Part shown: positions 1 to 46,700 of the stretch, piece after piece
How the letters are laid out: every line of letters starts with the position of its first letter
How positions within the stretch are numbered: the first letter of the stretch is position 1
Translations under genes and position numbers: made by a program
NCBI GenBank assembly: GCA_036172245.1
Contig: JAYWIR010000155.1
Location: forward strand, 1 to 58,395
Origin: Raillietiella orientalis
Taxonomy: Eukaryota
Reading direction: 5' to 3'
DNA length: 58,395 nucleotides
The notes under the pieces: generated by a model
Told to the model about the DNA's origin: nothing
What the model saw: the letters and a program-made list of their open reading frames with translations, nothing else
Databases searched by the model: none

Positions 1-300
1 CGCGTTGCAGGCTGCTACGGCGGGCGTGCCAGGACACGAGCTCGGCAATGGGGCCAGAGTCACCCTTTACGCTCTCAGCACCAACTCATAGTAGGTGCTG
101 AAGAGCAGGGGGCTGAGGCTATCTCCCTGCCTTATGCCCCGCCGCTTTGGAACGCCATGCACCTTCTGACTGCTGAAAGAGACGGAAATTATCCCATGGC
201 GCCAGCAGGAGCGCAGGTAGTTGATCAAGGAGGGTGGGAAGCCCATGCGACCCAGGAGCTCCAACAAAAGCCCCTGGTCAACACAGTCGAACGCCTTGTG
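1..300 (-). pseudogene. Host non-LTR ORF2 fragment (RT domain), interrupted at HKAFD by element A1
   Basis: Minus strand encodes HKAFDCVDQ...RRGIRQGDSLSPLLF (RT motifs). Homology stops abruptly at 300. Confidence 0.9.
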
Positions 301-394
301 CGCTCCAGGGTGGACGTGTTTTCTCGGTGCCCCTCGTGCCAGGAAGTCTCCCCCAGTTCAAGCGTCGTGTGGTTCGGTGGTCGATCAGGCAGCG

Positions 395-2069
395 ATGCCT
401 GACGCGACCACCAGGGATGGCCAGGGGGCAGCGGCAACGCCGCCCCCAGAGGCGATGGAGAGCCAGTGGGAGGAGGCAACGTCGCCCATAGAGGCGATGG
501 AGGTGGGGGCATCCGCCCCCACAGAATCGGTCCCCGCTTTAGCGCGGGCGTGGAGCGCCGCTGTGTCGGCTCCATCGCCCGCAGCCGAGGCGGAATTGTC
601 GGCCTAAGTGGAGGAGGCGTACATTTCTTCATTTTTCTACAAGGTAGGCAATTTATATTCTTTAGAGATCGCCCGCGCCTTCTAGAATGGCATGCGCGCT
701 CTCGATGTGAAAGAGGAAGAGCTTAGCGCTATGACCATCCGCAGAGGGGATCAGTACGTTAAGGTCATCTGCAAACGTGCAGAGCTGGCCCAACGACTGC
801 TTAAAACCCCCGTTGTGATGAAGACGCGCAGGCTTCTCCCCACTACGGCGGATCGCAGCATGGTGGTCCACCTGATAGGCGTGACCGCGCGAATGCGCAA
901 AGAACAGTTTCACGCCGCTTTGGAACAGTTTGGAACGGTCCACGCGCAGTGGACGAAAGTAAGTCCTTTCGAGGACTACACGTGGCTCCAACACGGCCTT
1001 ACTGCTACTCGCGTGACCGTTCGGGAGGGCTCCACTCTTCCCACAAACTGGTGGTCGAAGGCGAAACCGTCGACCTCTGGTATGTGGGGAAGCCGAAATA
1101 CTGTGGCTTCTGCAATACTTCGGGCCACCTCAAAAAGAGGTGCCCCAATGTGCAGTGACAAGTATGCGGCACAATGGGCCACACGAGGGAGGTGTGCCCA
1201 AAAGCAGCAGTGTGGGTGGTTACCAAGAAAAACCTTAAAAAACGCGCCCGGCTCCTGCAGAAAAGACTGGCGGCGAAACTGCCGCGAAGGCTGTGCCACC
1301 CGCGCCCAAGACCCAAGCCGCACCCGAGACCCTGGCGACCAACGCCGAAGAAGTTGAGGGAGCCGGCCAGGAGACTCAGTGGCAAGTGGCAACGGCCAAA
1401 AAATCAAAGAAGGAGAGGAGGATTGAAAAGAAAATCGCCTATCAACAGAAGATCAAAGAGCAGGGTAGCACGATAAATAAAGAGTGCAGCGTCGTTGTTA
1501 AACGCGTTCTCGATGTTGCCGAATGCTGCCGGAAAGAACTCGCCTCTACCGACGACCTCTTCTCTGTTGACACAGTCAATAGCGAATGGAGCGAGCCGGC
1601 GACAGCGTCCGTCATCGATACCACCATCGATGACGTAGCCTTCGCGCGAGCCGCGGAGGAGCTGGCAGCCTCGTTGCAGCCAGAACCCTCCAAGGCTGGT
1701 AAGAAGGCCGTAAGGCGTCCGGCCTACCCTCAGGAGTCCCCCACTTCCGACCTCGAGGTGGAGGCCGGAAGCGCAGCCCCTGTTTCCACGGCACCGCGCA
1801 AGAAGGCTAGACGTAATTTCACAAGGCCTAGGAAGCTCGTCTCCCCCGTCGAAGGGGAAGAGTTGGCTTCCGCAAGCGAGGGTGCCATGAGCGTAAGAGA
1901 CTCTCTGGACCCGTCGCCCGAGAGACTCCCACGCGCGGACACGGAGAGGATGGAGGGGGTGGAGGACGAACAGGTGCATCAGGTGCCTGAGAACGCCAAA
2001 ACCCCCATGGACATTCCGCCCGCCTCGCAAGAGGAGGGCTCTCCCACACCTTAATCTTCCCAGCAGTAA
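395..2069 (+). pseudogene. A1 ORF1, gag-like zinc-knuckle RNA-binding protein (stops and frameshifts)
   Basis: CGFCNTSGHLKKRC knuckle followed by a second degenerate knuckle. Pieces lie in ORFs 221-607, 692-1357, 949-1158 and 1293-2054. The in-frame TAA at 2067-2069 overlaps the ORF2 ATG. Confidence 0.85.
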
Positions 2070-5000
2070 TGCCGGGAATCTCCTCCCGCCGTCGTCTGCG
2101 CATCGCCGTTTGGAACGTGAACGCCATGACAGACGCCGGCTGGAGACGAGACATGGTCGCCCTTCTCGAGTCCTACCACCTTGCGCTGCTGCAGGAGATC
2201 CACGTGATCTCTGCAAAACAAGCGCAAGAGATCGAACGCATCTCCGGAGAGTGGCTATGGTACAGGTGTGGGAGAGCGAAGGGTTGCGGTGTCTCCTACC
2301 TGCTTCGGCCAGTCGTCGAGGCCGCGGCTCGGGGCGTGCGGTTCGACGATCACGGTCGTGTCGGCCAGCTGACTCTCAGGTGGTCCGACTCGATCGATCT
2401 GATCGTCACGAACGTGCACGCACCGAGCGGCGCGGACCTGATGACCAGGAGGGCGAGGAAAGAGTTTTTCCTTGCCCTCCATCGCGACTGGTTGACCGAG
2501 GCAGGCGTGCGGAATGCCCATCTGGTTGCAGGCGATTTTAACGTTCGTCTGAAACCGCATGGGCCGAATCACGAGCGTGACCTGGTCAACGAGGTGTGCG
2601 CGGCGGTGCACACTTGTAATTTGTTGGCCAGTGTACCAGGGATGGAGGACAACATCGATCACGTGTTCCTTGACGAACACCTGTGCACTCGTGTGGGCAG
2701 GCGCTGCAAGTTGCCGTGCGAGTTGTCCGACCATCGACCAATCGTGTTTGAAATCCATCCGCGCGAGAGGGGCCCCCCCTCGTCAGCGTGGCGTTTGCCA
2801 AGGGACTGGCAGAAGCTCCCGGACGCGACGGAACATCTCCGCACGTTTATACGGAGCTTTAGGATGCAGACATTTCAGGATTGGGACCGCTTTAAACGGT
2901 CGGTCCAGGAGTTCTGCGACCAGTTCCCACTGCGCCGCCTACCTGCAAGATTTGGGGACGGGTTACGTAACGAACGGGCCTATCTGCAGGCTCGCCGTTA
3001 CGCCAGGATCCCCGACATCCGCAGGCTGGCGGAATACAAAGGGGGAGCCGAAAGGCAATCCTGGCTCTCAGGATCAGACAGCTTGCTGGACGACCAGGGC
3101 CGGGAGCATTCGGCACCCGCTCAGATCCGCGGTTTGCTGCGGCGTTTTTACTCCTCCTTGTACGCAAGAACGCCTCCCGAGCGGAATTTCTCACGAATCC
3201 TGCTTTCGAAAGGCGCTCCTGCGATCTGTAAAGAGGAGAAAAAGTCCGTCGACGAGTCTTTCACGATGGGCGAGATCATCTCGGCCATCGGAAAGCTCAA
3301 GAGGCAAAAGGCTCCAGGGGAGGACGGCCTGTCCGCGGAGTTTTATCAAACTAACGCGGCTGAACTAACCCCCCTGGTACATCAACTCACCTTGCTGATA
3401 CGCGAGACAGGTGACGTTTCCGCCTCGTTTCGTTCGGCAAAGGTGCGGCTTCTCCCTAAGGGAGGAGATCTGAGGAGCATGAACAACTGGCGTCCCATCA
3501 CAATAGTGAATGCGGATGCCAAGTTGATAGCTAAGGTTTGGGCTGAGCGTTTGGGACGGGTTGCAAACGCCTTCATCAGCCCGGAACAGACGTATGCTGT
3601 TCCGGGGCGAAGCATGGAGGCGAACCTGTTCCACGCTTCCACCTGGCTAGGGCTCCAACACGAAAGCGGCTTGATGCGAACAGGGAATTCGGGTAGTCCG
3701 TCATTCATGCGACGGATGTTCAAATGGTGGAGGGAGCACTTGCGGTCGCTGTCGACTTGCGAAAAGCATTCGATTGCGTAAACCAGAATCTGCTGCTGAA
3801 GCTTTTGGAACGCTTGGGCTTCCCGGCCTCATTATTAACCTATCTGCGCTCTAGCTGGCGCGATTCGCAAATCAATGTAACTTTCAGCGGGAATATTGTT
3901 CACGGCGTGCCGGTGCGACGTGGGATCCGGCAAGGAGACAGCCTGAGCCCCTTGCTTTTCAGTACCTACTTTGAGTTTGTACTGAGAGCGTACAGGGAAA
4001 CTCTGGCGCACCTGCCGCCTGAATGCGCCGGAACGCCTGCGGTTTCAGCATATGCAGACGACCTCCTGCTACTGCTCTCTATGTCCACCCCGGCTTCGGC
4101 GGTCGAGAAGTTCTTCGAAATGCTGAATCGAGGAACCGGGCTTACGGTGAACAGGGCGAAGTCGTCCGTGATAGCAGTTGGTGCGGCGTGGGCAGGGCAG
4201 CAGCACTGGTTCCGTTTGGGGATCCTCACGGTGAGGTACTTCAAGTATCTTGGTGTGCCGTTGTTGGACTACTCCCCTGCGGAAGCGTGGTCCGGCTGCC
4301 TTCAAAAAGTAGAGACGGCGATCAACCCGCTCCGAGGCGGCAGGTTTTTCCTGCCTGAACGGGCCGCGGTTTGGAACATGTTCGCGGCTCCTGTCCTCCG
4401 TTCCCTGCTGCTTGTTTGCCCCCCCACCGAAAGGATCAAAAAGCGGACGAAGGTCCTCCTCCGTATCGCCGTTTGGGGCAACAAGAGGCCCCTAGTCCGC
4501 CTGAAGGACTTGCGCGCTCCGTGTCGGGACTGTGGTCTCGGCCTCCTTACATTGGAGCGGCTGGAGCTGCATTTCCAGTTCTGGATTTTGGCACTTGTGC
4601 CGGAGTTGTGGTGCACCGGTTGGTGCGTCCCTGCACTTCTCCTCCTCCAGCAAACCACCGGCAAGACGGGACTTACGTCGTTTCTTGCACTCCATCGAAG
4701 CCGCATCAACCGATGTGGGCTTCAGCTACGGAGGGTGGTTGCGCTGGCAAGGAGAAATCAAGGATGGATCACCTGTCTCCCCGCGAACGGTAGTGCCTGG
4801 TTGCAGAAAACCGTTCGTACGTGGGGACAGTTCGGCATGCAACCCTCCCATCAGGAACGAAGGTTCCTGTTTGGGTGTTACAGAAGTTGCACGCTCCGTG
4901 AGATCCTGGAGGATCATAAGAAGAGAGCGTGGTCAGGAAGAACCCTCCTCGCTGCTGCGCTGGACTCCCTAGTGGAACATCAGGACAGCGATGCTGCGGC

Positions 5001-5515
5001 GAAGTGGGAGGTTACAATCAAAATCTCCGGGAAGGAGAAGAAGCAGAGAGAGTGGAAGACGGGCCAGCTAACTGATGCTGCAACCCCGAGTACGCCTCCT
5101 AATGGACTTCTGCGCTGGGGAGCGCTGCTGTATGTTCCGATTAAACATGTGAAGTGGCCCCCGATTCCTATGAACACTTTCATCCTCCCCCTAAAATGGC
5201 AACAGTTTCCCGTTGCAGCACTGGGGACTACCCTGCAACGCCCGTCGACACCACTGGACTTGGGGAGCGGTGGATCCCAATTGTGTAAGGTGCGGGGAAC
5301 GGGAGTCCCTCCCGCACCTCCTAGTGGATCGTGATGCCCTTCGGCCCCTTTGGTTCCGCTTTGCCGCGGCCATCGGTATCCCTTGCAGCAACCCCAGGGA
5401 CGCACTAAAAGCCTTCTTCGTTGCCGACGCCCTGCGGCCAGCGTCCTCGATAGCAGCCTTGTGCTGCCTTCGAGGGATCGTCGCCGCCTGGAGCACGGCG
5501 ACGGGAGGACAGAGA
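2069..5515 (+). pseudogene. A1 ORF2: APE endonuclease, reverse transcriptase, C-terminal zinc finger (frameshifted)
   Basis: APE motifs WNVN, LQE, AGDFN, IDHVF, SDH. RT motifs KAPGEDG, WRPIT, DLRKAFD, GIRQGDSLSP, YADD, KYLG. Zinc finger CVRCGERESLPHLL. Frameshifts near 3720 and 5210. Confidence 0.92.
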
Positions 5516-6361
5516 GAAGATGATGAGCGGCTGGACCATGGGAGAGTTGACAGATGCAACGACCCCTAGTCTCCAGCCGCGTGGATTCAGAAGATGGGGC
5601 GAGCTGCTCGGCATTCGATTGGATGACCTGAAGTGGCCCCCGGTTCTACTTGGATCCAGGATTCTCCCCCTGAAGTGGCAAGAATCGGCGCTTCTGTGGC
5701 TGCATTGGGGTCTACCCTGCAACGCGCGCCGCTTCCACTGGACGCGGTGAAGAGTAAATCCTGCGTGTGCCAGGTGTGGGAAGCGGGAGTCGCTCTTATA
5801 CCTCTTAGTTGAATGCCATGCCGTCGAGATTCTTTGGGATCGTCTGAAAACGGCCCTCCGGATACCGGATGGTGGCAATGTTGAATGTATCTTCAGTCTT
5901 GTCTTCGTGCGGGACGCCCTCAGTCCAGCCGCAGCCCTGGCAGCACTTTGCTGAATTCGTGGTATCGTGGCGGCCTGGAGTGATAACGAAGATGAAGACT
6001 GCATCGTGAGGGACGTCATCGAGTGTGCTTCTCGCTTCCTGCAGAGAGCTACCCGATGGCCCCACCTAGGAAAGCTGAAAATGGAACTAGAAGGCATCCT
6101 GCAAAGGATGGGCGCTCCCAGCAGTTTTCTGTGATGTCTTCCCGGCCCTCCAAACTTTTTTTTTTTTGTGGTATGTTTTTCTGTTCTAGTTTATTTTTGT
6201 TTTTTCCCCCATCCCCCTCCACTGCCGAGAAGAGCCACACCGGGCTGCGTCCCGGTGTCCCGGCAGTTCCGGCATTCCGTGGCCGTCAGTGGGGCCTTGT
6301 ACCACGTTCTGTATTGCCCGTTGAAATGTTTTTTAATAAACGTTTCGGCGTATCCGGGTGG
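5516..6361 (+). mobile_element. B-type ORF2 C-terminus plus 3' UTR and terminus, fused to A1
   Basis: A second copy of the KWPP/LKWQ/CARC region resembles B3 from 19220 onward. It is followed by a T-rich 3' UTR and an AATAAA-hairpin end at 6335-6361. Confidence 0.8.
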
Positions 6362-6380
6362 CATCGCCGAATCCCTTGGC

Positions 6381-7160
6381 GAGTGGACGTGTTTTTCCTT
6401 CGCTCTCGAGTGAGTTAACAGGAAGAGGTTTTTTCTCTGTGTGTGTTCGTGTGGAACATCGTTGGTGTGCGATGGCAGCGATGTCTGAGGACACCACAAT
6501 AGAGGTAGGTGTGGGGAGGCTTGCCCTCCCTTACAGCCTACAGAATCAGAAGCGTCCGCCCCGGAAGCGCCCTCGCCGCCCAAGGCGAGGAGCTGGAGCG
6601 CCATGGTGGCCGCGCCGAGCGCGGAAACTAAGGTTGAGATGGCGGCCTACCGTTCAGCTGGGTACAAGCCCAGCTTGCTGTACCAGGTAGGTTTCTTATT
6701 TGATGGAAAAACGGCAAGCGCGTTTTCGAAAGCGCTCCAAAACGCCGGAGTTAAAGAACAAGATCTTCACGGCCTGTCCGTTCTCAGCGGAGGTCAGCGA
6801 GTCGAGGTGGTGTTCAAGGAGATCACCTTGGCTCAAAGTCTGATCACCAACCCGTTGAACGTCGACGGCTGCAAGATCCTGCCGGTGACGATGGACCGCT
6901 CCGTGGTGGTCCATTTCACTGGAATCACGAGTTGTATAACTCGCTCTGCGGTAGAACAAGAACTTCGAAAGTTCGGCGAGGTGCTCGCGCTGTGGCCTGA
7001 GCCAACAATCTTTAAAGGCTTCAATAGCCATTTCGGAGGCCAGGCTGAAGCGCGGGTAACCGTTAATAAGGACTGTGGGCTTCCCCACTAGCTGGAGGTC
7101 GCGGAAGAGGGCGTGGACCTCTGGTACGTGGGAAAGCTTCGGTATTGCGACTACTGCGAC
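6381..7160 (+). mobile_element. Copy B1: 5' UTR and N-terminal ORF1, truncated at the first zinc knuckle
   Basis: GGACGTG at 6385. ORF 6603-7091 (GYKPSLLYQVG...DRSVVVH) is homologous to the other ORF1s. Confidence 0.85.
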
Positions 7161-9437
7161 CTGACCTAGACGCGAAGCGAATAGCCCGACAAGCAAATTG
7201 GCGTCCGTATTCACAAAAGTTATCAGACGCCAGTTGTTCAGATTTCTGAGATCTCCTCCTTTCGAAAGAAGCGTCACTCTGGCTGTCGGAAAGGAGGCGG
7301 GAACATCGCATTCGTCTCCGATCAGCCTGATCAACTTAAGCAGCAAGGGTTCCAGCTTTTCTGCGAAGCTCTAAAAGAACTCCGCGGGCAAGCCGTCTTC
7401 CCCAGGAGCTTTCCACCTCTTGAGCCTTTTGATACCGGGGAGAATTTCTACGGTGTTAAGATGCTCGTCGAGGCTTAACGATTATTCCTCCTTCGTTATC
7501 GAAGCATCAAACGGAAGAAAGCGTCGAGAGGCATCTTGATCTGAGGGCGCCGTGGAGTAAAGGGAATTATAATCACCACGCACGAGATTAAGTTCCGACG
7601 CCGGAGACGGACATTTCTTGCCGTGGCCGTCCAGAAAGCTGTTCAATACGGATTGCCATGCTTAAAGTTCGGGCCCGGCTCGGTAGTGGTCCAGGCGACG
7701 GACATCAGGGGTTCTCTCTTTCTGACGGGCCTGTCAATAGACTCGATGGTTGCAAGGACCATCGTCGAACCCTGGAGGCAGGCGTCCCAGAGAAAACTGC
7801 TCGCAGAACTCCCGGATCGAGGCCTTAAACAGGTCTTAACCCTCGAATACCGGGCCGAAGGTTGCAAGGGCCCTCGAGAAATCCCGGGGGCGGGCGGTTA
7901 AAGCGAACTGCTCGCAGAACATCCGGACGGAGGCCTTAAAAAGGTTTCAATTCCAAAGACTCTTGAGCGTGACGCCTTTCAGGAATTCATGAAGGTGTTC
8001 CTATGCTGCTGAGAGTCGCGTTCAGTCCCCCGGCACACGACACTCCCTGGATGGAGGTCTGTTGTTGCGAAACCTCATCTCGAAATTTAGCCGGGAATGG
8101 TCCGACAGCGTCGACGCGATCTTCCCCCGTTTGCCGGCCCGTGAACACAAGTGAGCGTCCAGGAAGACGTGGACGATGTTGCGGACAATTCTTTCACCTG
8201 CAAACAGGTTCAGCACACGCATGGCGCCGCAGAACTCGTTCATCGCGTTCTCTTGTGTTTCATGTTCACCAGTTCGCAGTCGAAGATTGAGAACTCCTGT
8301 TATCAGGTGAGCCTTTCGCACGTTCGTGTTCGCCACACAGTCGCGTTCCAGGGATTCAAGCAGCCTGGTACGGTTGCTATATCCCTTTTGACCGGTATGG
8401 GCGTACACATTCGTGAAGATCAGATGGATCGAGACGGAGCAGCCGAAAATCAGCTGAGCAACCCGATCGACGTCATCGAAGCGCACGCCTTTCACGGCAG
8501 CGTCGATGGCTGGCTTGACGAAGAACGCGACTGCGCAGGTGTTGCGGAGGCCGCATTGCCGGTACATCCCACCCCCCGCGATCGACTTGATCTCCTGGAC
8601 GTCTGCCGCGAAGATCACGTGGATCTCCTGCAGCCGGTCAGGTTGAGTTCATGCAAAGTGTCGGCTGTACCTCGCCTGTTACCGTCGTCGCGCACCCCGT
8701 TGACATTCCAACAGGCCGCGCGGATCCGACGGCGACTGGCGAGCCCACGTTGTACTCCGGGAAAAGTGGCAGTCCGGCGTCCGCCACCTACCAGGGCAAG
8801 ATGCTAGGTGGAGGAGGAGGGTCAGGTGGTGAAGGCACATAATCCCCCTCCTGCATGGGTAACAGCGCGCCGAGCGCTGTTACCGATGCAGGTGGGGTCG
8901 CACCTATCTGTTGACCCTCCTTAATGGAGGCGGGCTGTTCAGGGTCGGCGACTGCAGGGAGGACTTTACCTACCTGCTCACCCTTCACCATGGGGTGGCC
9001 TTCTCGACAACTTCGGAACGTTGGAATTCCTCCTTTGGGGTTCCCACGCTGGCGACGGCTTCCGTGTCCTCCTCCTCGCTGGAGGAGGGGAAGCACCTCC
9101 TGGGCTTCTGGGACTTGCGTTGCGACTTTCTAGGGGGTGCCTTGGAGGAGGAGGAGCTGCTTCCGGCATCTAGGATTAACTCACCTGAAGAGGCCTTCTT
9201 TGCAGGATCCGGCTTTCGTACGGCCTTGCGCGAGGGGTTCTCCCGCTCGGCCAGCGTCACCGCGAGCTCCTGTGCCGCCTCTGCCAATGCGACGTCCTCT
9301 ACTTCGAAGAACGCGTCGCGCAGCTCACCCTCTGTGTAAACCGGAGGTTCGCAGTCGCGAGCCTTGGGCGCAGCGGAAACGGCGAGGGGAGGCTCGTCGC
9401 TCCAGGTGGCAGCCTCGGGAACGGCGATGCGTTCGAT
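7155..9437 (-). mobile_element. Copy B2 internal fragment: ORF1 C-terminus (9437-8755), APE and RT N-terminus (8750-7155), degenerate
   Basis: ORFs 8985-9443, 8022-8618 (APE) and 6696-7346 (KGGDLRNLNNWRLIT). Confidence 0.85.
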
Positions 9438-9885
9438 TTTCACCCAAATTTCTCCAAGTCGTTTATTGAAAAATAAACTTTATAATGAAATTATGTATGG
9501 CTGTGGGAATGCTCCAGCCAGAAGCGAAGAACCACAGAGCCTGTCAATTCACCGGTTCCTAGACCGGTATGGTCCACCAAGGCAGCAGGGGAAAAGGAAA
9601 AAACCAAAAACTAAACAAAAAAGACAAAGGGTGGGAGGGAACGGGAAGGGATCACTGATGCTGCTGGGGCCGCATCATGCCTCTCAGGATGCAGGCAAGC
9701 TCTTGTTTGATGTGAACATCCAGGTGGGGCCATCGCGACGCCCTCCTCAGGAATTGGGAGGCGCACTGGATGGCGTCCTGATCGCTAGGTCCTCCCGTCG
9801 CAGTGCTCCATGCGGCTACGATCGCACAAAGGCAGCACAAGGCTGCTATCGAGGACGCTGGCCGAAGAGCGTCGACAACGATGCA
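9438..9885 (-). mobile_element. A1-type 3' end fragment (ORF2 C-terminus, 3' UTR, terminus)
   Basis: Encodes DALRPASSIAALCCL...ASRWPHL. A degenerate AATAAA-hairpin end lies at 9467-9438. Confidence 0.85.
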
Positions 9886-11479
9886 AGATTCCAGTTTCTG
9901 AACACCCCTAGCAAACAACGGTTAAGAGCACTCTTAACGACTCTGGCGTCGGCGAAGGCTGTCAGACGGTACAGGCGAGAAGAAAGCCCTAGAGTACCGA
10001 ACGAAGCAAAAGGAAAAAGAAAACGCAGCGCAAAAAACCGTGCCGCGAAAAACTTCGCGCTTGTACGGTAAAAATAGAGCGTGTGGAGTCACTCGCTGTC
10101 GCCACCGGGGGAGCAATCTCCACCCTCGAGTCCGCCGAAGCGGCGACGGACGATGGCGAACCATCTGGAAGGAAAGAGGAGGAACTGAGCGCCTCGCTCG
10201 ACGCGATCGAGGAAGCCGCCTTCCAGCAGGCGGTGGAAGAACTCGAGGCAGAACTGCAAGGCCTTGAGAAGGACACTCGGAAAGGCTTACGAAGGCCGGC
10301 CGCGAGGAAGGCTCCGGAGGTAGGTGAGGCCGATCCGGACGGCGAAAGTGCGTCCTCTTCAGCGAAGGCGCCACCAAAGGAGACGGGACGTAAGTCTCAG
10401 AATCCCAGGAGGCGCATCCGGATCAATAAGGAGGCGGATGGATCCGCCCCCGAAGGGGAAGCCGGCAGCGTGGGAGGCGAGTTTGGGAAGCTCTCATTTC
10501 TAGACACCGTGCAGCTGGCGACCCCCATGGATGAGGAATTACAGGTGGGTGAAACCCCCCTTCCTCTGCACGGCCCTGACGAAGACTCGGCCTCAATGGA
10601 GGAGGGAGTAGCGGAGCGCGACGCACCCCCTCCTCCCAGCGTCCCACCCGACAAGGTGGCAGGTGCTTTATTGCCTCTTTCCCAGGATTAACACCTGGGC
10701 TTGCCTGTCGTTGTACGATCCGCGTAGCCTGCTGGAACGTCAACATGCTGCGCGACGACGGTAACAGGCGGGATACGGCCGACACCCTGCGCGACTTTGA
10801 ACTGGCGCTCCTGCAGGAGATCCAAGTGTTCTCCGCGGAGAACGTCCAGGAGATCGAGAGGATCGCAGGAGGTCGTCTGTTTTTGCAATGCGGCGCTCGC
10901 AACACCTGTTGCGTCGCCTTCATCATGAAACCAGCAGTCGTTTCCTTCGAAAAGGACGTACGCTTCGACAACGACAGTCGGGTTGACCAGCTCATCCTTA
11001 GGTGATCCGACTCGATCGACGTTGTCGTGACCAATGTGTACGCTCCGAGCGGAGGTTGCGGGTACAAGGAAGGTTCCCGGTTCCTTGAATCCCTGAAGCG
11101 CGACTGGCTGACGGATACAAACGTGCGCAAATTGCATCTGATCAGTGGCGATTTCAACATTTGCCTGGTCTCAGGTGTGCCATTCGGGAAAAAAGACGCA
11201 GTTAACGAGCTGTGCGCTGCTATGCACACGCGCGACTGGTTGGGGGACCTACCGTAAATGGTCCAAAGCGTGCACCACGTCTTCCTTGACTCCAACCTGT
11301 GCCCACGAGTCGGCAGACGAGGGAAACTTTCGTCGACGTTATCGGACGATTTCCGGTTGATATTCAAGGTTATGCCTCGCGACAAAGGACCACCATCCAG
11401 GGCGTGGCGTCTGCCCGGCGACTGGACGCGCATCTCAGGTGCGGCGAAACATCTACTCCAAGTACTAAGAGGCGTGATC

Positions 11480-11493
11480 CTCCGGAATCTCCA
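11480..11493 (+). repeat. Target-site duplication of A2 (left copy; right copy at 17027-17040)
   Basis: Exact 14-bp direct repeat CTCCGGAATCTCCA. Confidence 0.95.
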
Positions 11494-11706
11494 TTGAAAC
11501 CCGGGTGCGCCGGGACGTTCATTCTCACGAATAAACTTATACAATCTGTGACTGGACCAGTAGTCCAGCCACGCCCTGGAAAGATATAGCCTGCCGGGCT
11601 ACCGGTGCGCAGACCGGCGCGGTCGACCTCGGCAGCAGAGGGGAGGGGGAACGAAACAAAAAGAAAACAAATAAGAAACAAAAATCAGGGAGGGAGCGAA
11701 AAGATA

Positions 11707-14700
11707 TCACAGTCTGCTGGGAGGGTTCGTCATCCTCTGGAGGATGCCGGCAAGCTGTTTCTGCTTGTGTGGTTCCAGATCGAGCCATAGCGTCGCCATC
11801 CTGAGGAAACGGGCGGCATACACGTTGGCATCCCTGTCGCTAAATCCTCCCGTCGCTTGCTCTATGCCACGAAGATCCCGCGTAGGCAGCACAGGGCTGC
11901 AAGCGAGACCGCTGGAGGCAGGGCGTCACGGACGAAGTGGGGGCGCAAAGCGTCTCTAAGGTTGCCTCCGGGGATCCCCAGGGCTGCGGCAAAGCCTTCC
12001 CACAAGGGACGGAGGGCAACATAATCCACTAACAGGTGGGGGAGGTATTCCCTCTCCCAGCACCTGACACAATTAGGGTTGACACCCCCCCGCGTCCAGT
12101 GGTGTCGGCGGGCGTTGCAAGGAAGCCCCCAATGCAACAATATCAGTGCCGACTGTTGCCACTTCATAGGGAGGGTGCGCGAGTCCATGAGCACCGGAGG
12201 CCACTCGAGATGTTCCTCTGGAACATCCAGTAACTCTCCCCAACGGAACAGTCCATTTGGGGTGGTCGTCGGGATCGCAGCGTTGGTGAGCTGACCCGTT
12301 CTCCAATCTCCGATCTTCTTTGCCCTCTTGGCGATCTTCACAGTTACCTCCCATTGTGCCGCGACGTCGCTGCCCAGATGTTCCCGTAGGGTAGGCAGTA
12401 CCGCAGCAAGGGAGGTTCTTTGTGCCCACGCTCTCCTTCGGGGATTCTCGATGATTCCTCGGAGCGTGCGGCCGTCATGCGGCCCGAACAGAGCTATTCG
12501 CTCGTGTTGCGTGCTCTGCTCCTGAATCATCGCCCACGTGCGGACGGTTTCCTGCAACCAGGCAGGACCGTCCGCGGGGCGTACAAGGATCCGCGCCGAG
12601 TTGTTCTTCACGAGCTTGGCCGCCCTCCGAAGTTGAAGTCCGCAGTGGCAGATGGGGCTTCGGAGTGCAAAGTAGGACGAGAGTCCCGCATTGCCGGTGG
12701 CCCGCTCGACGAGGAGACATGCAGGGAGGCACCAAGGGGTGCACCAATTTCCTGCCATAAAGGCAACAACTCGGAACTGGAGCTGTAGCTCCAGTCGCTC
12801 CAACGTCAGGAGGCCCAGACCACCATCCCGACGAGGAGCGCACAAGTCCGAAAGACGGACTCGGGGCCTCCCTCTGCCCCAAAGGGCGATCCTCAGGAGG
12901 TCCTTCGTCCTCTTCTTTGACTCCGCTGAGGGGGAGCAAACAAAAAGCAAGGGGCGCAGGAGGGGGGCCGCAAACGCGTTCCAGGCCGCGGCCCGTTCCT
13001 GCAGGTAGAACCTGCCGTCCTGGAACGGGCCGATCGCCGCCTGAGCCTTCTGAAGGCAGCCGGACCACGCTTCCTCAGGGCAGTAATCCCCCAACGGCAC
13101 ACCAAGGTACTTGAAGTACCTCACCGTGGGGATCCCCAAACGGACCAGTCCTGCTGCCCTGCCCACGTCGCTACGACTGGCATTACGGACGACTTCGCCC
13201 TGTTCACCGTCAGTCCTGTTCCACGACTCAGCAGGTCTAAGAAGTCCTCGACCGCCGAGGCCGGGGTGGACATAGGCAGCAGCAGCAAAAGATCGTCCGC
13301 GTATGCCGAAACCGCAGGCGTACCGGGGCAATCGCACGTCAGGTGCGCAAGAGTCTCCCTGTACGCTCTCAGCACCAATTCGAAAAAGGCGCTAAAGAGC
13401 AGGGGGCTCAGGCTGTCTCCCTGCCGTATGCCGCGTCGCACCGGTACTCCGTGCACCGTTTGCCCGCTGAAAAGAACATTAATGAGCGCGTCGCGCCAGC
13501 TGGATCGCAGGTAGGCCAACAAAGAGGCCGGGAAGCCCAAGCGTTCCAGAAGCTCCAGCAGGAGATTCTGGTCGACGCTGTCGAATGCTTTACGCAAGTC
13601 GACAGCGACCGCAAGTGCTCGCTTCCCCACCCGACCGTTCCGTCTCCCGCCAACGGACGCACTGGAATTCCGGCTGCTCAATAAGCCCCTTCCTTGTTGG
13701 AGCTCTAACCATGTGGAAGCGTGGAACAGGTTCGCCTCCATACTTTGCCCGGGAACAGCATATGTCTGTTCCGAGCTGATGAAGATGTTGGCGACCCGTC
13801 CCAGACGCTCTGCCCACATCCTGGCTAGCAACTTGGCGTCCGCATTCACTATTGTGATGGGACGCCAGTTGTTCATGCTCCTAAGGTCTCCTCCCTTAGG
13901 GAGGAGCCGCACCTTTGCTGAACGAAACGAGGTGGGAACGTCACCTGTTTCGCGGATCAGCAAGGTGAGCTGATGTACCAGGGGAGTAAGCTCTGCCGCG
14001 AAAGTTTGATAAAATTCCGCAGGCAGGCCGTCCTCCCCTGGAGCCTTTCGCCTCTTGAGCTTTCCGATGTCCGAGATGATCTCGCCCATCGTGAAAGGCT
14101 CGTCGAGGTTCCTTTTCTCCTCCTCCCCGATTGCTGGAGCACCTTCCGGAAGCAGAAGTCGTGAGACAGCCTGCTCCGGAGGCGCCCTGGCGTACAGGGC
14201 GGAGTAAAATTTCCTCACTATCCCGCGTTTCTGAGCGGGAACCGAGTGCTCCCGGCCCTGGTCGTCCAGCAAGCTGGCCGAACCGGATTGCCAGGCTTGC
14301 CTCTGGGCTCCCGCTCGATACTCTGCTAACCTGCGCATGTCGGAAGTTCTCGCGTAACGTCGGGCCTGAAGATAGCGCCTTTCGTTACGCGGCCCCTCCC
14401 CAAATCCCGCAGGTAGGCGATGCAGAGGGAACTGGTCGCAGAACTCCTAGACCGACCGCTTGAAGAGGTCCCAGTCCTGAAGTGTCTGCATCCTGAAGCT
14501 CCGAATAAACGCGCGGAGGTGCTCCGCCGCGTCGGTGAACTTCAGCCAGTCCCCTGGCAGACGCCACGCTGACGAGGGGGGGCCCTTGTTGCGCGGACGC
14601 ACTTCGAACATAATCCGACCATGGTCCGACAGCTCGGATGGTTCCTTGCCGCGCCTGCCCACCCTAGAGCATAGTTGCTGATCAAGGTACACGTGATCGA

Positions 14701-15283
14701 TGCTTTCCATGGCCGTGTCCCCGGCCAACAAGTTGCGCGTGTTCATTTCTGCGCACAACTCGTTGACGCGGTCGTTCAGTGTATCCGGCGCACCTGAAAG
14801 CAGGCGCAGATTGAAATCACCTGCGATCGGGTGCGCTTTGCGAACTCCTGCATCGGTCAGCCAATCGCGTCTCAGGGCAAGGTAGAATTCCCTTCTTGCC
14901 TTCGCCTTCAACGCCTTATTTTTGCTAGGAGCGTATAGGTTGGTGACTACCAGGTCGATAGAGTCGGACCAGCTGAGAGTCAGCTGACCGACGCGACCTG
15001 CGTCATCGAACCGAACGTCCTTTATTGCGGCGTCGATGGCTGGCCGAAGCAGGAAGGCGAAACCGCTTGATTTCGCGGTGCCGCAACGCCACAACAGCCG
15101 CCCACCCAAGATACGTTCGATCTTCTGGGCTTGATCTGCGGAGATCACGTGGATCTCCTGCAGCAGCACCAGGTCGAAGGATGCCAGGGTGGCGGCCACG
15201 ACACGCCTCTTGCTGTCGTCGCTTAGCCCGTTCACGTTCCAACAGGCGATCAGAAGACGACGCCGAGAGGCGATTCCCGGCAT
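11707..15283 (-). pseudogene. A2 ORF2 (APE-RT-zinc finger) with a stop and frameshifts
   Basis: ORFs 14447-15283 (APE), 13121-14338 (RT, YADD), 11862-13337 and 11707-11892. Confidence 0.92.
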
Positions 15284-16941
15284 TATGGCTGGGAAAGTGG
15301 CGTCGCGGCACCTGCCGCGGGGCAGGTGTAGGAAAGGTCCATCGGTACGAGGACCATCGGAACGAGGACGGAGGCCTCTTCAGGCGCCTGGGGTACCTGT
15401 TCGGCCTCCATCCTCACCATCTCCTACGTGTACGAGCGTGGAATTCTCTCGGGCGACGGGTCCCGGGAGTTTCCCACGCTCATGGCACCCTCGCTACCGG
15501 AAGCCATCTCTTCCCCTTCGTCGGGGGAGACGATCTTCCGGGGCATTGTGGACTTTCGTCCTGCCTTTTTGCGGGGTGCCGCGGAGATGGATGCTGTGTT
15601 TCCGGCCTTCAGCTCGGGGTCGGAAGTGGCCGACTCCTGAGGGGAAGCCGTACGCCTGACGGCCTTCTTGCCAGCCTTGGGGGCAACCGGCTGCAACGAG
15701 GCAGCCAGCTCCTCCGCGGCGCGCTCGAAGGCGACGTCATCGAGCGTGGGCTCGATGACGGACGCCGCCGCCTCGCTCCCCTCCTTGTTGACTTTGTCAA
15801 CGGAGGGTTGATCAGGGGCAGCAGCGAGTTCTTCAGCGCCGCATTCGTCGATGGCGGGAATCCGCTCTACAACGACGCAGCAGCTTTTAATTTTATCGCG
15901 GCGCAGAGCGGTTTCACTCTGTTTCGCCACGTTGTTTACCTTCTTATGGGAGTTTTTCTTGGGGTCGACCTTCTGCCACCCTGGCTCTTGACCCTCGCCC
16001 TCGACCTTTTCGGCGTTTTTCGCCGAAGTCTCGGGTCTGGCCTTCGCCTTGGTGGCGGAGGTGATCTTTTTAGCAGCAGCACGAGCTGGCAGCTCCTTTC
16101 TCTTTTTTGCCGCGCGCTTTCTCGCGTTTTTCGCGGACACGACGCGGACTGTGTTTTGGGGGCACACCAGACTGGTGTGCCTGGCTTGTTTGCATTGCTG
16201 GCACTGCACGCTCGGACACCTCATTTTAAGGTGACCAAAGCTGCTGCAGCAGGCGCAAACCTTGGGTTTCCCCACGTACCACACGTCAACGGATTCACCG
16301 TTGACGGTGAGTTTGTGGGGAATCTCACATCCCTCGCGAACCGTCACTCGCGCTGCACGCGGGCCGCCAAGCAACCCATCGTAATCGACAAAAGGAGTAG
16401 GCTTTCCCCACAGCGCGTGGACAGTTGGGAATTTTTCCAATTCGTTCCGGACGGCCTCCTCCGTCATCCGGAACGTGATGCCGGTCAGGTGAATGATCAC
16501 CGATCGGTCTTCAGTTATTGGGAGAAGCCTCCGGCTGCCCATACATGCAAGGGTTCGCAGAAGTCTCTGCGCAAGAGGTGCCTCCTTGCAGATAACTTCA
16601 ACAAATTGACCCTTGCTTCTGACGGACATAGCCAGAAGCTCCTCTTTCTGTACGCCGAGAACGAGCATCGCCTGTGAGAAGGCGCGCGCGTTCTTGGGAG
16701 AATATAGACCGCCTACCTTATATAGAAGGGGTGGGTTATGCCCCTCCTCCAGGTAAGCGCGCATTCTCGATATAGCTGCTGGCGTAGGTGCCGCAGCCAC
16801 GGCGTTCCAAGCCCTGGGTAGGGCCGGGGGCGCATCCGTGCTGGCGGGAGCCTCCACTGATGCAAGAGCCCCCATCTCCATCTGCTCCGGGGGCAATGAG
16901 GTCATCGCCTTCGGATCCTCACCGGTGGTGGTATCAGGCAT
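15283..16941 (-). pseudogene. A2 ORF1, zinc-knuckle protein (505 aa open, then premature stop)
   Basis: ORF 15424-16941 contains CACCSSFGHLKMRC and CQQCKQARHTSLVC. TAATG stop-start at 15285-15281. Confidence 0.88.
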
Positions 16942-19900
16942 TTCTGCCTAATCCTCCACCCACACCACGCACAAGCACCAACGGAAATGGAACTCAGGAG
17001 CAACGAAAAGACACGTCCGCTGGACGCTCCGGAATCTCCAGGACTGGGACCCCATAAAGGCCTCGGTCCGCGAGTTCTGCGAGGAGTTCTCTGTGCACCG
17101 CCTTCCCCGGGGATTTAGTGAGGAAACATGCAACGAAGGAACGTATTTGCACTACCATCGTTTCGCGAGGACCCCTGACATCGGTCGCTTGCCGAGTACA
17201 ATGCCTGGGCCAAGCGTCAGGACTGGCAAAACCGGGCCGTCTTGCGTGCTGGACGACCTGGACCAGGAATACTCGGACCCGGCATCTATACGTCGCCTGG
17301 TGCGTGGATTTTACTCCTCTTTACGCCAGGGTACCTGCTGAGTGGGACGTCTCGCGGCGCTTGCTTCCAGATGGAGCCCCGGCCATAGGGCAGGAAAAGA
17401 AAGAAAGCCTTGACGATCCTGTTACGACCGATGAAATCATCACCGCTATTAAAAGGCTCAAGAAACGTAAGGCGTCAAGAAAGGATGGCCTGCCGGCGGA
17501 GTTCTTGGAGTGCTTCTTTGCAGACATGACCCTCCTGGTGCTCCAATTGACACAACTGATCCGAAACGAAGGCGATGTTCCCGCTTCGTTTCGGTTAGCC
17601 AGGGTGAGGCTCCTTCCTAAAGGAGGAGACCTTAGCAAATTATGCAACTGGCGTCCGATCACGATTGTGAACACGGACTCCAAGCTGCTGGCTTAACTGT
17701 GAGCTGCGCGTCTGGGGCGGGTAGCCGACAGCTTCGTCAGCCTGGAACAGACGTACGCTGTCCTCGGGCGAAGCATGGAAGTGAACCTGTTCTTTGCCAG
17801 CACATGGTTCCATGTGCAACGCGAGAAAAATCTAGAAAAAAAACGGAATTTCGACAAAGATGATTGGAGGGCGCCAGCGAAGCAAGTAAGGAACGACTAA
17901 GAAAAGAAGAGGGCTCTAGCGATCGCATTCGATCTGCACAAAGCGTTCGATTGCGTGGACCAGAAACTTTTTCAGGAGCTTCTAAATCGCATGGGCTTCC
18001 CGGACACCTTAACGGCCTACCTGCGCGCCTGCTGGCGCAATGCGAAAATCAACTTGTTTTTTAGAGGACAGCACGTGTTAGGCGTGCCGGTGAGGCGCGG
18101 CTCCTGGCAGGGCGACAGCCTTAGTCCACTGCTCTGTAGCACCTATTTCAAACTGGTGCTCAGAGCATACAGGGTGACATTGGCTGGCCTGCCAAGCTCG
18201 TGTCCAGGGACGCCGGCCGTGTCGGCGTATGTTGACGAACTTTTGCTCCTGCTGCCCATGTCAGCCCCGGCTTCGGCAGTCGAAGATTTCTTCGACTTGC
18301 TGAGCCGTAAGACAGGATTACGGGTGAGCAGAACCATGTCATCGCTGGTTGCGGTTGGTGCAAAGTGGGCAGGACGACCTGATTGAATTTGCCTGGGGAT
18401 CCCCACGGAGAGGTACTGGAAGAACCTCGACGTTCAGTTAGGGGACTTCTACCAGTCAGAAGCCTGGTCAAGTCGTCTCCGAAAATTGTAGTCAGCGATC
18501 GGCCCGTTTCTGCAAGGCAAGCTTCACTTGCTGGAACGGGCTGCGGTGTAAAACGCGTTCGCAGCCTCTTTCCTTCACCCTCTGCTTTTTGTTTGCCCCG
18601 CATCCCGTGAACTGAAAAAAAGAACAAAGGACCTTGTACGCAACGCCCTGTGGGGCGGCCGGAGGCCTCGTTTGCCTTTAAAGGATTTGAGCTCTTTACA
18701 TCGGGACGGAGGTCTGAGCGTCCTCACGATGAAGCGAATGGAAACACAACTGCGGTGGCGTACTCTAGCCATCGCAGCGAAAATGTGGAAAACGTCTTGG
18801 TGCGTGCAAGCTTGCTCGTTCGCTAGACCTGTGTCCGAGACTGAAGGACTTGCGTCTTTTCTTCTGTGCAGCAGCCGTAAAATAAGAAGATGCGAACTTC
18901 TCCTGGGACGCATGGTCACCCTGGCGAAGGAGAACGGGTAAATGGCCTGCAGCCCCGCCAACTCCAGCGCATGGCTAGAAGAAACAGTTGGAACGTGGGC
19001 AAAGTTAAAAGACATCAGTAAAGAATCCTGCAACCGCCTGCGCACAGGCATCTACACCCGCTGTATGCTGCGAAACATGATGGTGTGTCCCGCCAGAAGA
19101 ACTTTGGCGGAAAAAACTCCACTGGCCACGGCGCTGCCCTTCCTACGAAGGGCGCTTCAAAACAGCCGGAAGCCGAGATGGCAAGATTCCTTCCAGATAG
19201 CGGGCAAGGAGAAGGATCTAAGCGGGTGGACAATGAGGTGACTGGCAGACGCCACAACCTCAAGCGTTCATCCGCATGAAATACGGAGATGGGGTGAGCT
19301 GCTTGGCATCCCGGCGGATGACCCAGTGTAGCCCCTGTTATTTGGAGACGCATCCACTCTCCTCCTCAAGTGGCAGAAAACGGCGCTGTTGTTGGTGCAC
19401 TGAGGTCTTCCTTGCAGCGCGCGCCGCCATCCCTCCCCCATCTGTTAGCGGACTGCGCTGCCCTCCGGCTTTTTTGGGAACGTTATGCTACGACCCTCTC
19501 TATGCCGGACGGCAGTACCCCTAGAGACGCTGTGAGACTCCTCTTCGTGCGAGACGCCCTGTCACCAGACTCAACACTGACAGCGCTCTGTTGCCTCCAA
19601 TTTATTGTGGCCGCCTGGTGCGGAGCCAACAGAGGAAGCAGCGACAGGGACCCCATCGTACACGCGCGTCGCTACCTGCGAATCGCAATTTGCTTGTCCC
19701 ATCTGGGAGCTATGACGAGGGAACTCGAGGGTTTCCTGGAAAGGATAGTCTCTTCCTCTAGCTGGTTGTGATCCCTTCCCGGCTCATCAAATAGTTTCTT
19801 TTTGTTATTTGATTTATTTTTTTTTTGTTTTACCCCCTATCCCGTCCGCTGCCGAGAAGGACAAGCTGTACGCAGAACCGGCTTCCTGGCAGGTCCCATA

Positions 19901-19977
19901 GAATTATGGCCGTAGCGGGACCTGATACCGTAATGTAAAGTGTTTTTTAATAAACGCCCCGGTGTGACCAGGTGAAG

Positions 19978-20700
19978 GCTCCCCAGGTCCACTGTTGTCG
20001 ACAGGCGTTGCAGGGGAGTCCCCAGTAATGCAACAGGAATGCCGACTCTTGCCATTTTAAGGAGAGGTTGGAAGTGTTCATAAGAACCAGGGGTCACTTC
20101 AGATATTGTATCGGAACATCGAGCAGCGCTCCCTAGCGATGAAGTCCCTTGGAAGGCGTACTCGGGGTCGCAGCATCAGTTAGCTGGCCCGTCTTCCACT
20201 CTCTCTGCTTCTTCTCCTTTCCGGAGATTTTTATTCTGACCGCCCACTTCGCCGCAAAATCGCTGTCCTGATGTTCCACTAGGGAGTCCAGCGCAGCAGC
20301 GAGGAGGGTTCTTCCTGACCACGCTCTCTTCTTATGATCCTCCAGGATCTCACGGAGCGTGCAACTTCTGTAACACCCAAACAGGAACCTTCGTTCCTGT
20401 TGGGAGGGTTGCATGCCAAACTGTCCCCACGTGCGAACGGTTTCCTGCAACCAGGCACTACCGTTCGCGGGGAGACAGGTGATCCATCCTTGATTCTTTC
20501 TTGCCAGCGCAGCCACCCTCGGTAGCTGAAGCCCACATCGGTTGATGCGGCTTCGATGAAGTGCAAGAAACGACGGAAGTCCCGTGTTGCCGGTGGCTTG
20601 CTGAAGGAGGAGACGTGCATGGACTCACCAACAGGTGTACCACAACTCCGGCACAAATGCCAAAATCCGGAACTGGAGCCGCAGCTCCTGCCGCTGCAAT
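19978..20700 (-). mobile_element. A1-type ORF2 fragment (post-RT region)
   Basis: ORF 20133-20516 is nearly identical in translation to A1 4740-5115. Confidence 0.88.
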
Positions 20701-21800
20701 GTTAATAGGCCGGTCTTTCTCCTCTGCGAATGGACCTTAAATTACTTTTCTGGCCGCAAAATGTTGCCAGCCCTGTTCCTTTTCCATTACTGCGGAAGGT
20801 TTAGCTTTTGGGGTTTTGCTTCCGGAGGTTGAGGTGCTCGCAGCTTCTGCCGGCCACCTTCCGCCCTAGGTCTTGCGACCTTCAAGTCACGTTTCCCCTG
20901 CGCTTCCTTGGCGGCAGGGGAAACCGCAGTGGGGCGCTTGCGGCACACAAGCCGAATGTGGCTTTTCTTCCAGCACAGGTGGCACTGTATGTTAAGACAC
21001 CTCTTACGGAGGTGTCTTACGGCATCACAGTAGCCGCAATATCATGGTTTTCCCACGTACCAGAGATCCACGCTCTCCAGCGGGACCTTTAGTTTGTGGG
21101 GAAGTTCACAATTCTCTTTTGCGGTGACCCACGCTGCAGCCTGACAACGAAAAATGCTATTGTAGCCGTCGAAAATAATGCATTTGAGCCACAGTGCGTG
21201 CACCTCGCCGAACTTTCGGAGTTCTTCTCCGACCGCAGAGCGAGTCATGCGGCTGCTAATGCCGGTCATGTGGACCACCACGGAGAGATCCATTGAAACC
21301 GGCAAGATCTTTCGACCGTCAACGTTTAGCGGAGCATGGATCAGGCGGTGGGCCAAGATGACGTCTTTGCACACCATCTCGACCCACTGCTCGTCGCTGA
21401 GGACGGAGAGTCCGTCAAGATACTTTCCCAGTATGTTCGTTTTTTGCAGTGTGCTGCTAAAGGCGCGTTCAGTCCGGCCTTAAACAAGTTGCCTACCTGG
21501 TAGACGAGCGATAACTTGTACACGGATGCTTTGTATGCGGCCATCTCCGCCATGGCTTCCTCGCTGGGCGCTGTCACCAAGGCGCTCCATGTCCTCTACG
21601 TGGCCAGGGATGACTCCGAGGCGGATGCCCCTAATGCTGCAGGCTGCAAGGGTGGCCATGCCTCCCTCACGCCTACTTTCATCGCGGTGTCTTCGAGCTT
21701 CGTAGCCATCGGAGACCGACGATGCACACAGAACAACATACACAAGAAAAAACTCTTTGCTACGACTCTTTTGGAAATGAAGGAAAAACACGTCATTCCC
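20701..21800 (-). mobile_element. B-type copy: 5' UTR and ORF1 N-terminal half with knuckles, degenerate
   Basis: GACGTG at 21794-21789. ORFs 21341-21580 and 21042-21377 (DLWYVGKP). Confidence 0.85.
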
Positions 21801-31177: not shown

Positions 31178-31348
31178 GATGCCGCGCTCGATAAAGTCGC
31201 GGAGGTGCCCGCGGCAACGTTCGCCGTCAACGATGACGCCCTGCTCGATAAGGTCGCGGAGCAGCCCGCGGCAACGTTCGCCGCTGGCGAAGACGCGGCC
31301 TTCGAGAAAGCGGCGAAGCAGCTCGCAGCAACGATCGCCGAGCGCGAA
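31178..31348 (+). repeat. Three in-frame 57-bp (19-aa) tandem repeats in B4 ORF1
   Basis: DAALDKVAEVPAATFAVND / DALLDKVAEQPAATFAAGE / DAAFEKAAKQLAATIAERE. Confidence 0.9.
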
Positions 31349-32305: not shown

Positions 32306-32330
32306 GAGTGTGGACGTGTTTTTCTTCGCT
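32306..32330 (+). promoter_or_regulatory. Conserved element 5' motif GGACGTGTTTT (representative copy), putative internal promoter element
   Basis: Present within ~12 nt of 13 5' junctions across groups A, B and C. Function is inferred. Confidence 0.5.
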
Positions 32331-38211: not shown

Positions 38212-38220
38212 ATTTCAATC

Positions 38221-46343: not shown

Positions 46344-46700
46344 CCGCACGCCAACACGGGTCAGTTCATCGTTGAACTGATTCCCGTCGCGCGCAGAAAG
46401 AAAACCACTCACCTTATATCGGAGAGCAGGTCTATAGCCTTGGGCTACGTATGCCCGCAACTCCGACTCGTCGAGTGGTTTCCCTTTGACGGCTGCTGTG
46501 GCAGCAACGTCAGCAAAACTCTTAATTGACGAGAAAGACGAAGTGGAGGCGGCCGTAGGTTCCGCGATTGCAGATCCGGATGCTGTTCCTCCAACTTCAG
46601 TAGCTTCAAGTTGGGTCGACATCGTCGTCAAAATGTACGACGCCAAGATGAAGCGGATGAAAGCACGGAGACGAGAGCGAAGAAAAACACGTCCGCACTC
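46344..46700 (-). mobile_element. Copy C3: 5' end and start of ORF1 only
   Basis: Near-identical to C1 32306-32668 (MSTQLEATEVGG...VGVRE). Fused to the A1-type 3' portion. Confidence 0.9.

Follow-up and report, generated by a model that had tools for sequence, protein, structure and literature searches.

The window analyzed here is a 58,395-nucleotide (nt) stretch of contig JAYWIR010000155.1 from Raillietiella orientalis (assembly GCA_036172245.1), and it consists solely of nested non-long terminal repeat retrotransposons on both strands. Among them is a lineage of long interspersed nuclear elements (LINEs), here called A1, that is, as judged from its junctions, a KAFD-homing element in this window: its target is the conserved coding motif 'KAFD' in the reverse transcriptase (RT) genes of sister LINEs. 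We found that one A1-type copy (copy 1) lies instead in the first open reading frame (ORF1) of another LINE, where its 3' end abuts a look-alike of the KAFD site. The placement of copy 1 was very probably directed by sequence, that is, by a DNA word and not by the gene that carries it, and it suggests an off-target case for a LINE that targets a coding motif of its sisters. The account that we favor is that copy 1 is an ectopic target-primed reverse transcription insertion of this KAFD-homing element at a look-alike site, and we give that account an even chance. Copy 1 is a useful control for a larger LINE-homing phenomenon and not a discovery by itself.

The copy 1 junction and its counterpart in an RT gene

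Positions 9423 to 9437 read GGCGATGCGTTCGAT, followed by TTTCACCC at 9438 to 9445. At the RT counterpart, positions 45364 to 45375 read AAGGCGTTTGAT, again followed by TTTCACCC (45376 to 45383). An earlier note on this DNA had placed an A1-type 3' terminus against a look-alike site at 9423 to 9467, and both junctions read base for base as it gave them. Rightward of each junction, the same conserved LINE 3' end appears in reverse complement (stop codon, 3' untranslated region [UTR] of about 215 nt, AATAAA, CCCGG..CCGGG, and GTGAAAA). The two 3' UTRs are 77.9% identical across 276 nt, and a 22-nt 3' UTR motif is found at just these two places in the window (0 expected). The 17-mer GCGTTYGATTTTCACCC has exact matches in the window solely at 9429 and 45367, and the text GCGTTCGA plus TTTTCACCC at the 9437 junction repeats that of the KAFD junction at 45367 to 45383. 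The look-alike core, GCGTTCGA, occupies 9429 to 9436 on the plus strand, antisense to the host ORF1, and the nick that provided the 3' end of the primer would lie after A9436. The comparison site is formed by the KAFD codons AAGGCGTTTGA(T) of a plus-strand host, H3, at 45364 to 45375; this left target copy abuts the 3' end of an antisense element, X (45376 to 46349). The right target copy of the same H3 site, AAAGCTTTCGAC, lies at 50459 to 50470 (plus strand), beside the 5' end of X at about 50458.

To place the junction exactly, we compared 3' ends. Ten are recognizable in the window, each with a stop codon, a UTR of about 215 to 330 nt, AATAAA, the palindrome CCCGG-N-CCGGG, GTG, and 2 to 4 A-rich bases, followed by target. 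A poly(A) tail is absent from all 10, and the element ends 2 to 4 A-rich bases past GGGTG. In A1-type copies, the tail is a fixed AAAA; an identical AAAA follows GGGTG and precedes the target in three copies (at 9441, 24778, and 45379). In copy 1, they are positions 9437 to 9440 (minus strand; TTTT on the plus strand). At 24774/24775, a duplication of CTTGA sets the junction after CTTGA, and the right-hand target copies at all three KAFD insertions read ..TTCGAC. Because this duplication and the three right-hand copies put the nick after GA, T9437 and T45375 belong to the tail and not to the target. The match to the RT junction at 45375 proposed earlier thus holds as sequence identity, with the boundary shifted by one base to fall between GCGTTCGA and TTTTCACCC. 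The tail AAAA and the register at 9437 equal those at 45375 and 24774. Another register, in which elements end in ..AATC and GAT is wholly element derived, was tried and rejected; the AAT(C) of R-type elements belongs to the 8-bp ATTTCAAT, a target duplication in the GDFN codons.

At its normal target, the A1 lineage occupies three of the nine RT KAFD sites in the window, all in antisense orientation and at the identical base. In addition to the H3 site, a survey of sites identified two on the minus strand. The first (283 to 297) holds the 5' end of a+, a full-length antisense element (about 298 to 5510) that is the closest relative of copy 1, and the second (56507 to 56521, in host j) holds that of another antisense A1 element that runs from 56522 to the end of the window.

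Using tblastn, we aligned every copy to R (32291 to about 38215), an intact element. The proximal part of copy 1 (9437 to 9935, minus strand; right edge approximate) contains the 3' UTR and the ORF2 end of a 5'-truncated A1 LINE. It is 77.9% identical to 45367 to 45640 and 90.3% identical to a+ at 5418 to 5510, and in the tblastn alignment, 9661 to 9894 corresponds to ORF2 reference positions 5360 to 5593. Copy 1 was later split by the insertion of a 5'-truncated LINE, H2 (9936 to 19976, plus strand), which itself carries a full-length antisense LINE (11495 to 17021) with a perfect 14-bp target duplication, CTCCGGAATCTCCA. Beyond H2 is the distal part of copy 1 (19977 to 20712, minus strand), an ORF2 segment that ends in the 5' truncation at 20712. 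Its identity to a+ (4539 to 5268) is 90.3% over 735 nt, and its identity to X (45971 to 46346) is 83.8% over 377 nt. Since the distal part matches both a+ and X, and the 3' end of X is the 45376 junction, copy 1 is of the A1 type.

The host of copy 1, H1, was delimited by sequence comparison. Its downstream part (7122 to 9436, minus strand) comprises the C-terminal region of ORF1 (about 8800 to 9436) and the N-terminal apurinic-like endonuclease (APE)/RT part of ORF2 (7122 to 8779). The flank at 9315 to 9434 is 87.5% identical over 120 nt to the C-terminal region of an intact minus-strand ORF1 (H47, 47737 to 47855), in agreement with the earlier placement of the site in ORF1 and in the sense orientation. 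The H1 ORF1 resumes directly past the 5' end of copy 1, at 20712/20713. In this upstream part (20713 to 21596, minus strand), 21596 to 20747 is 75.9% identical to 48810 to 47962, a match that we extended by eye to 20713, and 20747 to 21176 is 72.8% identical to the adjacent upstream segment of H47. Between the two H1 parts, about 70 bp are gone (H47 47926 to 47856) that are present in H47, H3, and H2. Copy 1 is 5' truncated, has a target deletion in place of a target-site duplication, and has a complete 3' end at a look-alike of the canonical nick site. By these alignments, it is a true 5'-truncated, sense-oriented insertion into ORF1, outside any RT gene. The minus-strand pieces 10 to 297, 7122 to 9436, and 20713 to 21596 are collinear in reference coordinates and do not overlap, and they may be one host H1. 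If so, A1 struck a single H1 twice: the full-length antisense a+ entered at KAFD, and the sense-oriented copy 1 entered ORF1.

The KAFD junctions all lie in homologous genes, where a copied composite or a feature of RT genes could mimic targeting. Copy 1 lies in a nonhomologous gene and in the opposite orientation, and it provides a control within the genome that separates the DNA word from the gene context. Inserts run antisense to RT genes but in the sense direction in ORF1, and the side of GCGTTC.A on which they lie does not change. Orientation thus follows the motif and not the host gene, which argues for site choice by DNA sequence and against a copied composite. The earlier note had offered this site as a natural control against duplication, and it does serve as one, with the same motif and register outside RT. 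A stronger, independent argument comes from the KAFD sites themselves. Identity between a+ and 56522+ reaches 91.6% over 1138 nt, against 70.8% between their hosts; X shares 72 to 73% identity with either of these inserts, and its host shares 73 to 78% with the two remaining hosts. Because the hosts are far more diverged than the two closest inserts, these KAFD hits are independent events and not duplicated composites.

Recognition of the site and the origin of base 9435

On target, the strand 5'-..CAYAAGGCGTTCGA^C.. would be nicked after GA (the caret marks the nick). The resulting 3'-OH would prime cDNA synthesis at the fixed end of the element (..CCGGGTGAAAA), and a further nick, some 14 nt upstream, would lead to the target duplication, which is 13 to 15 bp for A1 on target. 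Off target, the same machinery would have met GCGTTC(G/C)A^GTGC on the antisense strand of the H1 ORF1 and used the same register and the same tail. Completion would then have been abnormal, with 5' truncation within ORF2, loss of about 70 bp of target, and no duplication.

To reconstruct what the host read before insertion, we examined the homologous position in other ORF1 copies. The unoccupied homologue in H3 (31034 to 31045, minus strand), GCGTTCCAGTGC, shares 10 of its 12 bases with the canonical GCGTTCGACTGC and contains the core GCGTTCCA (31038 to 31045). H47 reads TCGTTCCAGTGC at this position, with the core TCGTTCCA (47851 to 47858, minus-strand gene). The ORF1 of X itself, at about 49200, also has the core GCGTTCCA, in the context GCGTTCCAC, and the H2 homologue, at about 10080, has the core ACGCTCTA in the context ACGCTCTAT. 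H1 has GCGTTCGA and then the tail. By this comparison, the securely host sequence is GCGTTC.A alone, and the pre-insertion site agrees with the canonical 12-mer at 10 positions, rising to 11 if H1 carried CTC.

The base at issue is G9435, for which there are three readings. H1 may have had a synonymous CTC in place of the CTG leucine codon, which would make the 8-mer perfect. Alternatively, GA may have been copied from a template RNA that ran into the canonical KAFD flank and paired with ..GCGTTC-3', or the G may be a later mutation or an untemplated base. A synonymous variant in H1 would point to the endonuclease as the reader of the site, and a G copied from RNA would point to RNA-DNA pairing, as in the R1Bm element of Bombyx mori. 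The origin of base 9435 would therefore tell whether protein or RNA reads the target. Empty sites from the H1 sublineage would bear on this directly: GCGTTCGAG would favor the endonuclease, and GCGTTCCAG throughout would favor RNA templating.

We consider it evenly balanced whether the word was read by the predicted A1 endonuclease, a reading that requires either the synonymous CTC in H1 or a later origin of G9435. Three observations favor it. The register equals that of the on-target junctions. The likeness to the canonical site extends past the nick (A.TGC) in the homologue-inferred GCGTTCCAGTGC, and this stretch cannot act in primer-template pairing. Furthermore, sister families also land at fixed bases, which fits recognition by protein: two of them land before GGACTGG (11494/11495 and 24774/24775) with different sequences on the primer side, and another lands in the GDFN codons. 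The earlier proposal was that the endonuclease recognizes roughly GCGTTYGAY in any gene context. What stands of it is a sequence-directed choice with the same motif and orientation; in contrast, T9437 belongs to the tail, G9435 is possibly not host sequence, and the data do not assign the role to the endonuclease. The motif is trimmed to about GCGTTC(G)A^, and with the bases past the nick, copy 1 limits the word to approximately GCGTTC(G)A^(C/G)TGC.

Several points weigh against the account that we favor. G9435 is found in none of the four homologous ORF1 copies (C in three and T in one). The bases past the nick are deleted in H1 and known by homology alone, and there H3 has GTGC versus the canonical CTGC. 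Four other exact GCGTTYGA sites outside RT genes (2232, 24067, 28435, and 28570) are empty, so the core alone is not sufficient, and two homologous ORF1 sites are empty as well. There is one off-target event only, and it lacks a target duplication. Finally, the 3' palindrome is conserved, but compensatory change is seen in none of its four predicted pairs, a result that does not demonstrate a structured RT-binding signal.

The most serious competing explanation, which we regard as distinctly possible although less probable, is RNA-guided priming. Transcripts of a KAFD-resident A1 would run a few bases into the flank (..GGGUGAAAAUCGAACGC..), and an H1 end in ..GCGTTC-3' would pair with GAACGC and be extended. 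The GA at 9435 and 9436 may then have been copied from RNA, with a break that was possibly imprecise or endonuclease independent. This explains G9435 without a host variant: host homology stops exactly at GAACGC, and the next TC, in element orientation, is that of the canonical KAFD flank (TCGAACGC..) and unlike the four ORF1 homologues. One synonymous host variant explains the same match equally well. The absence of poly(A), with only the fixed four-A tail, is also in line with RNA guidance, as are the missing duplication and the deletion of about 70 bp, which resemble atypical insertions. In addition, the target copies around X differ from each other, and the tail-side copy is nearer to canonical. 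However, RNA guidance needs a break 2 nt off the canonical nick and leaves the likeness past the nick (A.TGC) unexplained. The read-through transcripts are hypothetical, and AATAAA, 25 nt before the end, would favor cleavage at the tail (GGGUGAAAA) over read-through. The landing base shared by the two sister families despite different primer-side sequences also argues against it.

A further idea, speculative and in our view unlikely, is that the landing site is remembered in RNA: transcription of each copy would extend a few bases into its flank, and this flank-derived tag would pair with nicked DNA and steer or at least proofread the next insertion. If this were true, a chance landing in some other conserved motif could give rise to a lineage with an 'address' of its own, which would explain sister LINE families that each have one fixed target in the genes of others, and base 9435 would be the first footprint of an RNA-templated junction.

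Coincidence, rearrangement, and assembly

A random or weakly specific insertion that happened to fall beside KAFD-like sequence is improbable. It is a single event, and these GC-rich coding repeats share short words: the two strands together contain GCGTTY 114 times, and GCGTTC is the antisense of GAA CGC (Glu-Arg). The exact GCGTTCGA, however, precedes only 9 of the 116,774 window positions on both strands, and 80 of 116,774 when up to one mismatch is allowed. The per-position chance is thus 7.7e-5 for the exact 8-mer and 6.9e-4 with ≤1 mismatch, and it is about 1e-3 for GCGTTY alone. Since the window offers no A1-type 3' flank outside RT genes other than that of copy 1 (n = 1), there is little multiple testing and the test was effectively prespecified. 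Register, tail, and orientation also agree with the on-target junctions. With ≤2 mismatches, the canonical 12-mer occurs at 14 sites, which include the nine RT sites and the H3 homologue of the off-target site, compared to 8.1 in shuffled sequence. The 11 exact GCGTTYGA sites are occupied at three of six positions in RT genes and at one of five outside them, numbers too small to compare.

A secondary rearrangement appears slightly less probable still. Here, a KAFD-resident A1 copy would have been joined to the H1 ORF1 by deletion, gene conversion, or segmental copying, and GCGTTCGAT would be a leftover of the RT host. The nest does contain several internal deletions, such as the one that joins the 5' part of an R-type element (reference 378) to X (reference 4844) at 46341 to 46349, and GAACGC could have served as a 6-bp microhomology. 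But one and the same ORF1 stands on both sides of copy 1, and in the intact homologue only about 70 bp separate its two ends. Such an arrangement is not what a fusion by deletion would yield, and it also disfavors a copied RT junction; RT sequence is absent left of 9429.

An assembly artefact, that is, a chimeric join between repeats in a region made of nested repeats only, is the least probable explanation, given a coherent structure in which the insert stays collinear past the element that later split it, host sequence borders it on both sides, and the junction falls at the exact element terminus.

Related systems and other elements in the window

The window elements carry ORF1 and ORF2, and ORF2 encodes an apurinic-like endonuclease (PF03372) followed by a reverse transcriptase (PF00078). 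Pfam searches matched both families in the ORF2 pieces of a+ (PF03372, E = 4e-10; PF00078, E = 9e-17) and on R. In a+, the predicted APE domain lies toward the ORF2 N terminus (1991 to 2750). A zf-CCHC knuckle (PF00098, E = 1.3e-5) was found in one family, in an ORF1 C-terminal piece (30614 to 31609), and a Pfam search of the ORF1 piece beside the junction (8988 to 9479) gave no match. The best solved relative is human LINE-1 ORF2p (E = 3e-26), and protein searches of databases returned few relatives (one and four matches). By these domain matches, the A1 lineage is an L1-like, APE-encoding LINE. A stricter pattern scan of metagenome contigs for the A1 3' end gave 0 loci. A looser scan gave 120 loci, none of which was similar by blastn to the three A1-type 3' regions, and we set these aside as chance matches.

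The G+C content of the window is 53 to 61%, and CpG depletion is absent (observed/expected, 1.01).

Tx1L, a target-specific LINE, inserts into the DNA transposon Tx1D. Like A1, the LINEs of the Tx1 and R1 clades combine APE with RT and land at one nucleotide of a repeated sequence, a target that is multicopy and dispensable. The passages of one survey that concern them describe both clades as APE-encoding, target-specific groups (PMC4640811). A1 differs in that its target is a conserved coding motif of sister LINEs, entered in antisense. A limited literature search found no description of LINEs that home into the RT codons of other LINEs, which is no proof of absence.

For R1Bm, the portions of two reports that bear on target use state that its endonuclease makes specific cuts in both strands of the 28S target (PMC1919474) and that accurate initiation needs downstream target sequence (PMC7265360). 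R1Bm and A1 thus share two possible target readers, the endonuclease or target-derived RNA that pairs with nicked DNA. R1Bm belongs to another clade and has another target (28S rDNA). Utopia, according to the relevant part of PMC4640811, includes weakly target-specific families that insert into U2-like sequences; like A1, it is a target-specific lineage that enters sequences merely resembling its canonical target. Unlike A1, it has a restriction-like endonuclease and targets U2 snRNA genes.

The window also resembles the nested clusters of L1-type LINEs in green algae known as Zepp and ZeppL (PMC3446292, PMC8226300). As far as the passages on these clusters go, both are GC-rich islands made of nested L1-type LINEs, and those passages deal with how the elements cluster and nest and not with landing at fixed nucleotides of coding motifs. 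The window elements end in AATAAA and a four-A tail.

Atypical L1 insertions can combine 5' truncation with a target-site deletion. Copy 1 is like them in its truncation, its missing duplication, and the removal of about 70 bp of target, and unlike them in its complete 3' end, which is precisely positioned at a sequence resembling a specific target and not at a T-rich one. It shares the missing duplication and the target deletion with endonuclease-independent LINE insertion as well, a mode that often involves 3' truncation and shows no favored cleavage motif, but a complete 3' end at a look-alike nick site argues against a random break.

The KAFD sites in the window differ in their alanine codon. 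In the A-type elements (a+ and those ending at 11495 and 24775), the element's own KAFD alanine is GCA (GCATTCGA), and none of their three sites is occupied (3763 to 3774; 13580 to 13591, minus strand; and 26289 to 26300, minus strand). In B- and R-type elements, it is GCG, except for GCT in the right-hand H3 copy at 50459, and three of their six sites are occupied (17940, 36013, 41925, 45364, and, on the minus strand, 56510 and 286). This contrast in occupancy could reflect self-avoidance by the homing lineage, although the numbers are far too small to tell (one-tailed P of about 0.24).

The two target copies around X (45362 to 45375, CATAAGGCGTTTGA, and 50457 to 50470, CGTAAAGCTTTCGA) have 4 mismatches in 14 bases, even though X keeps long open frames. 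In other families, target duplications are identical at 14 of 14 and at 7 to 8 of 8 bases. Either the host halves around X are not one element, or the tail-side copy is partly RNA templated; identities of the left and right H3 halves to other elements did not settle whether they are one element. CpG decay as a cause of target-copy mismatches was considered and dropped in view of the observed/expected CpG ratio. At 46341 to 46349, an R-type element (reference 1 to 378; 94% protein identity to R) that entered H47 at its GDFN codons is abruptly joined to the ORF2 end of X (reference 4844). The join points to an extensive internal deletion in which two nested elements lost their 3' parts and X lost its middle.

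The family that lands in the endonuclease GDFN codons has the 8-bp target word three times around a tandem pair, R-R2, and a third copy is located at 46700. Three R-type 5' ends (32297 to 32309, 38212 to 38224, and 46697 to 46709, the last on the minus strand) start right after GGAGATTTCAAT, which lies in the GDFN codons, or after its duplicated copy, and the tandem R-R2 pair is compatible with a second strike on the duplicated target.

Two further 3' ends, k at 6360 and j at 54412, both precede ATCGCC (6361 to 6366, plus strand, and 54401 to 54406, minus strand). The two elements are not close relatives, and the shared word may be chance or another preferred word. The 5' end of H47 sits in sense orientation inside the ORF1 of X (48998 to 49012, minus strand), which marks another landing site in ORF1.

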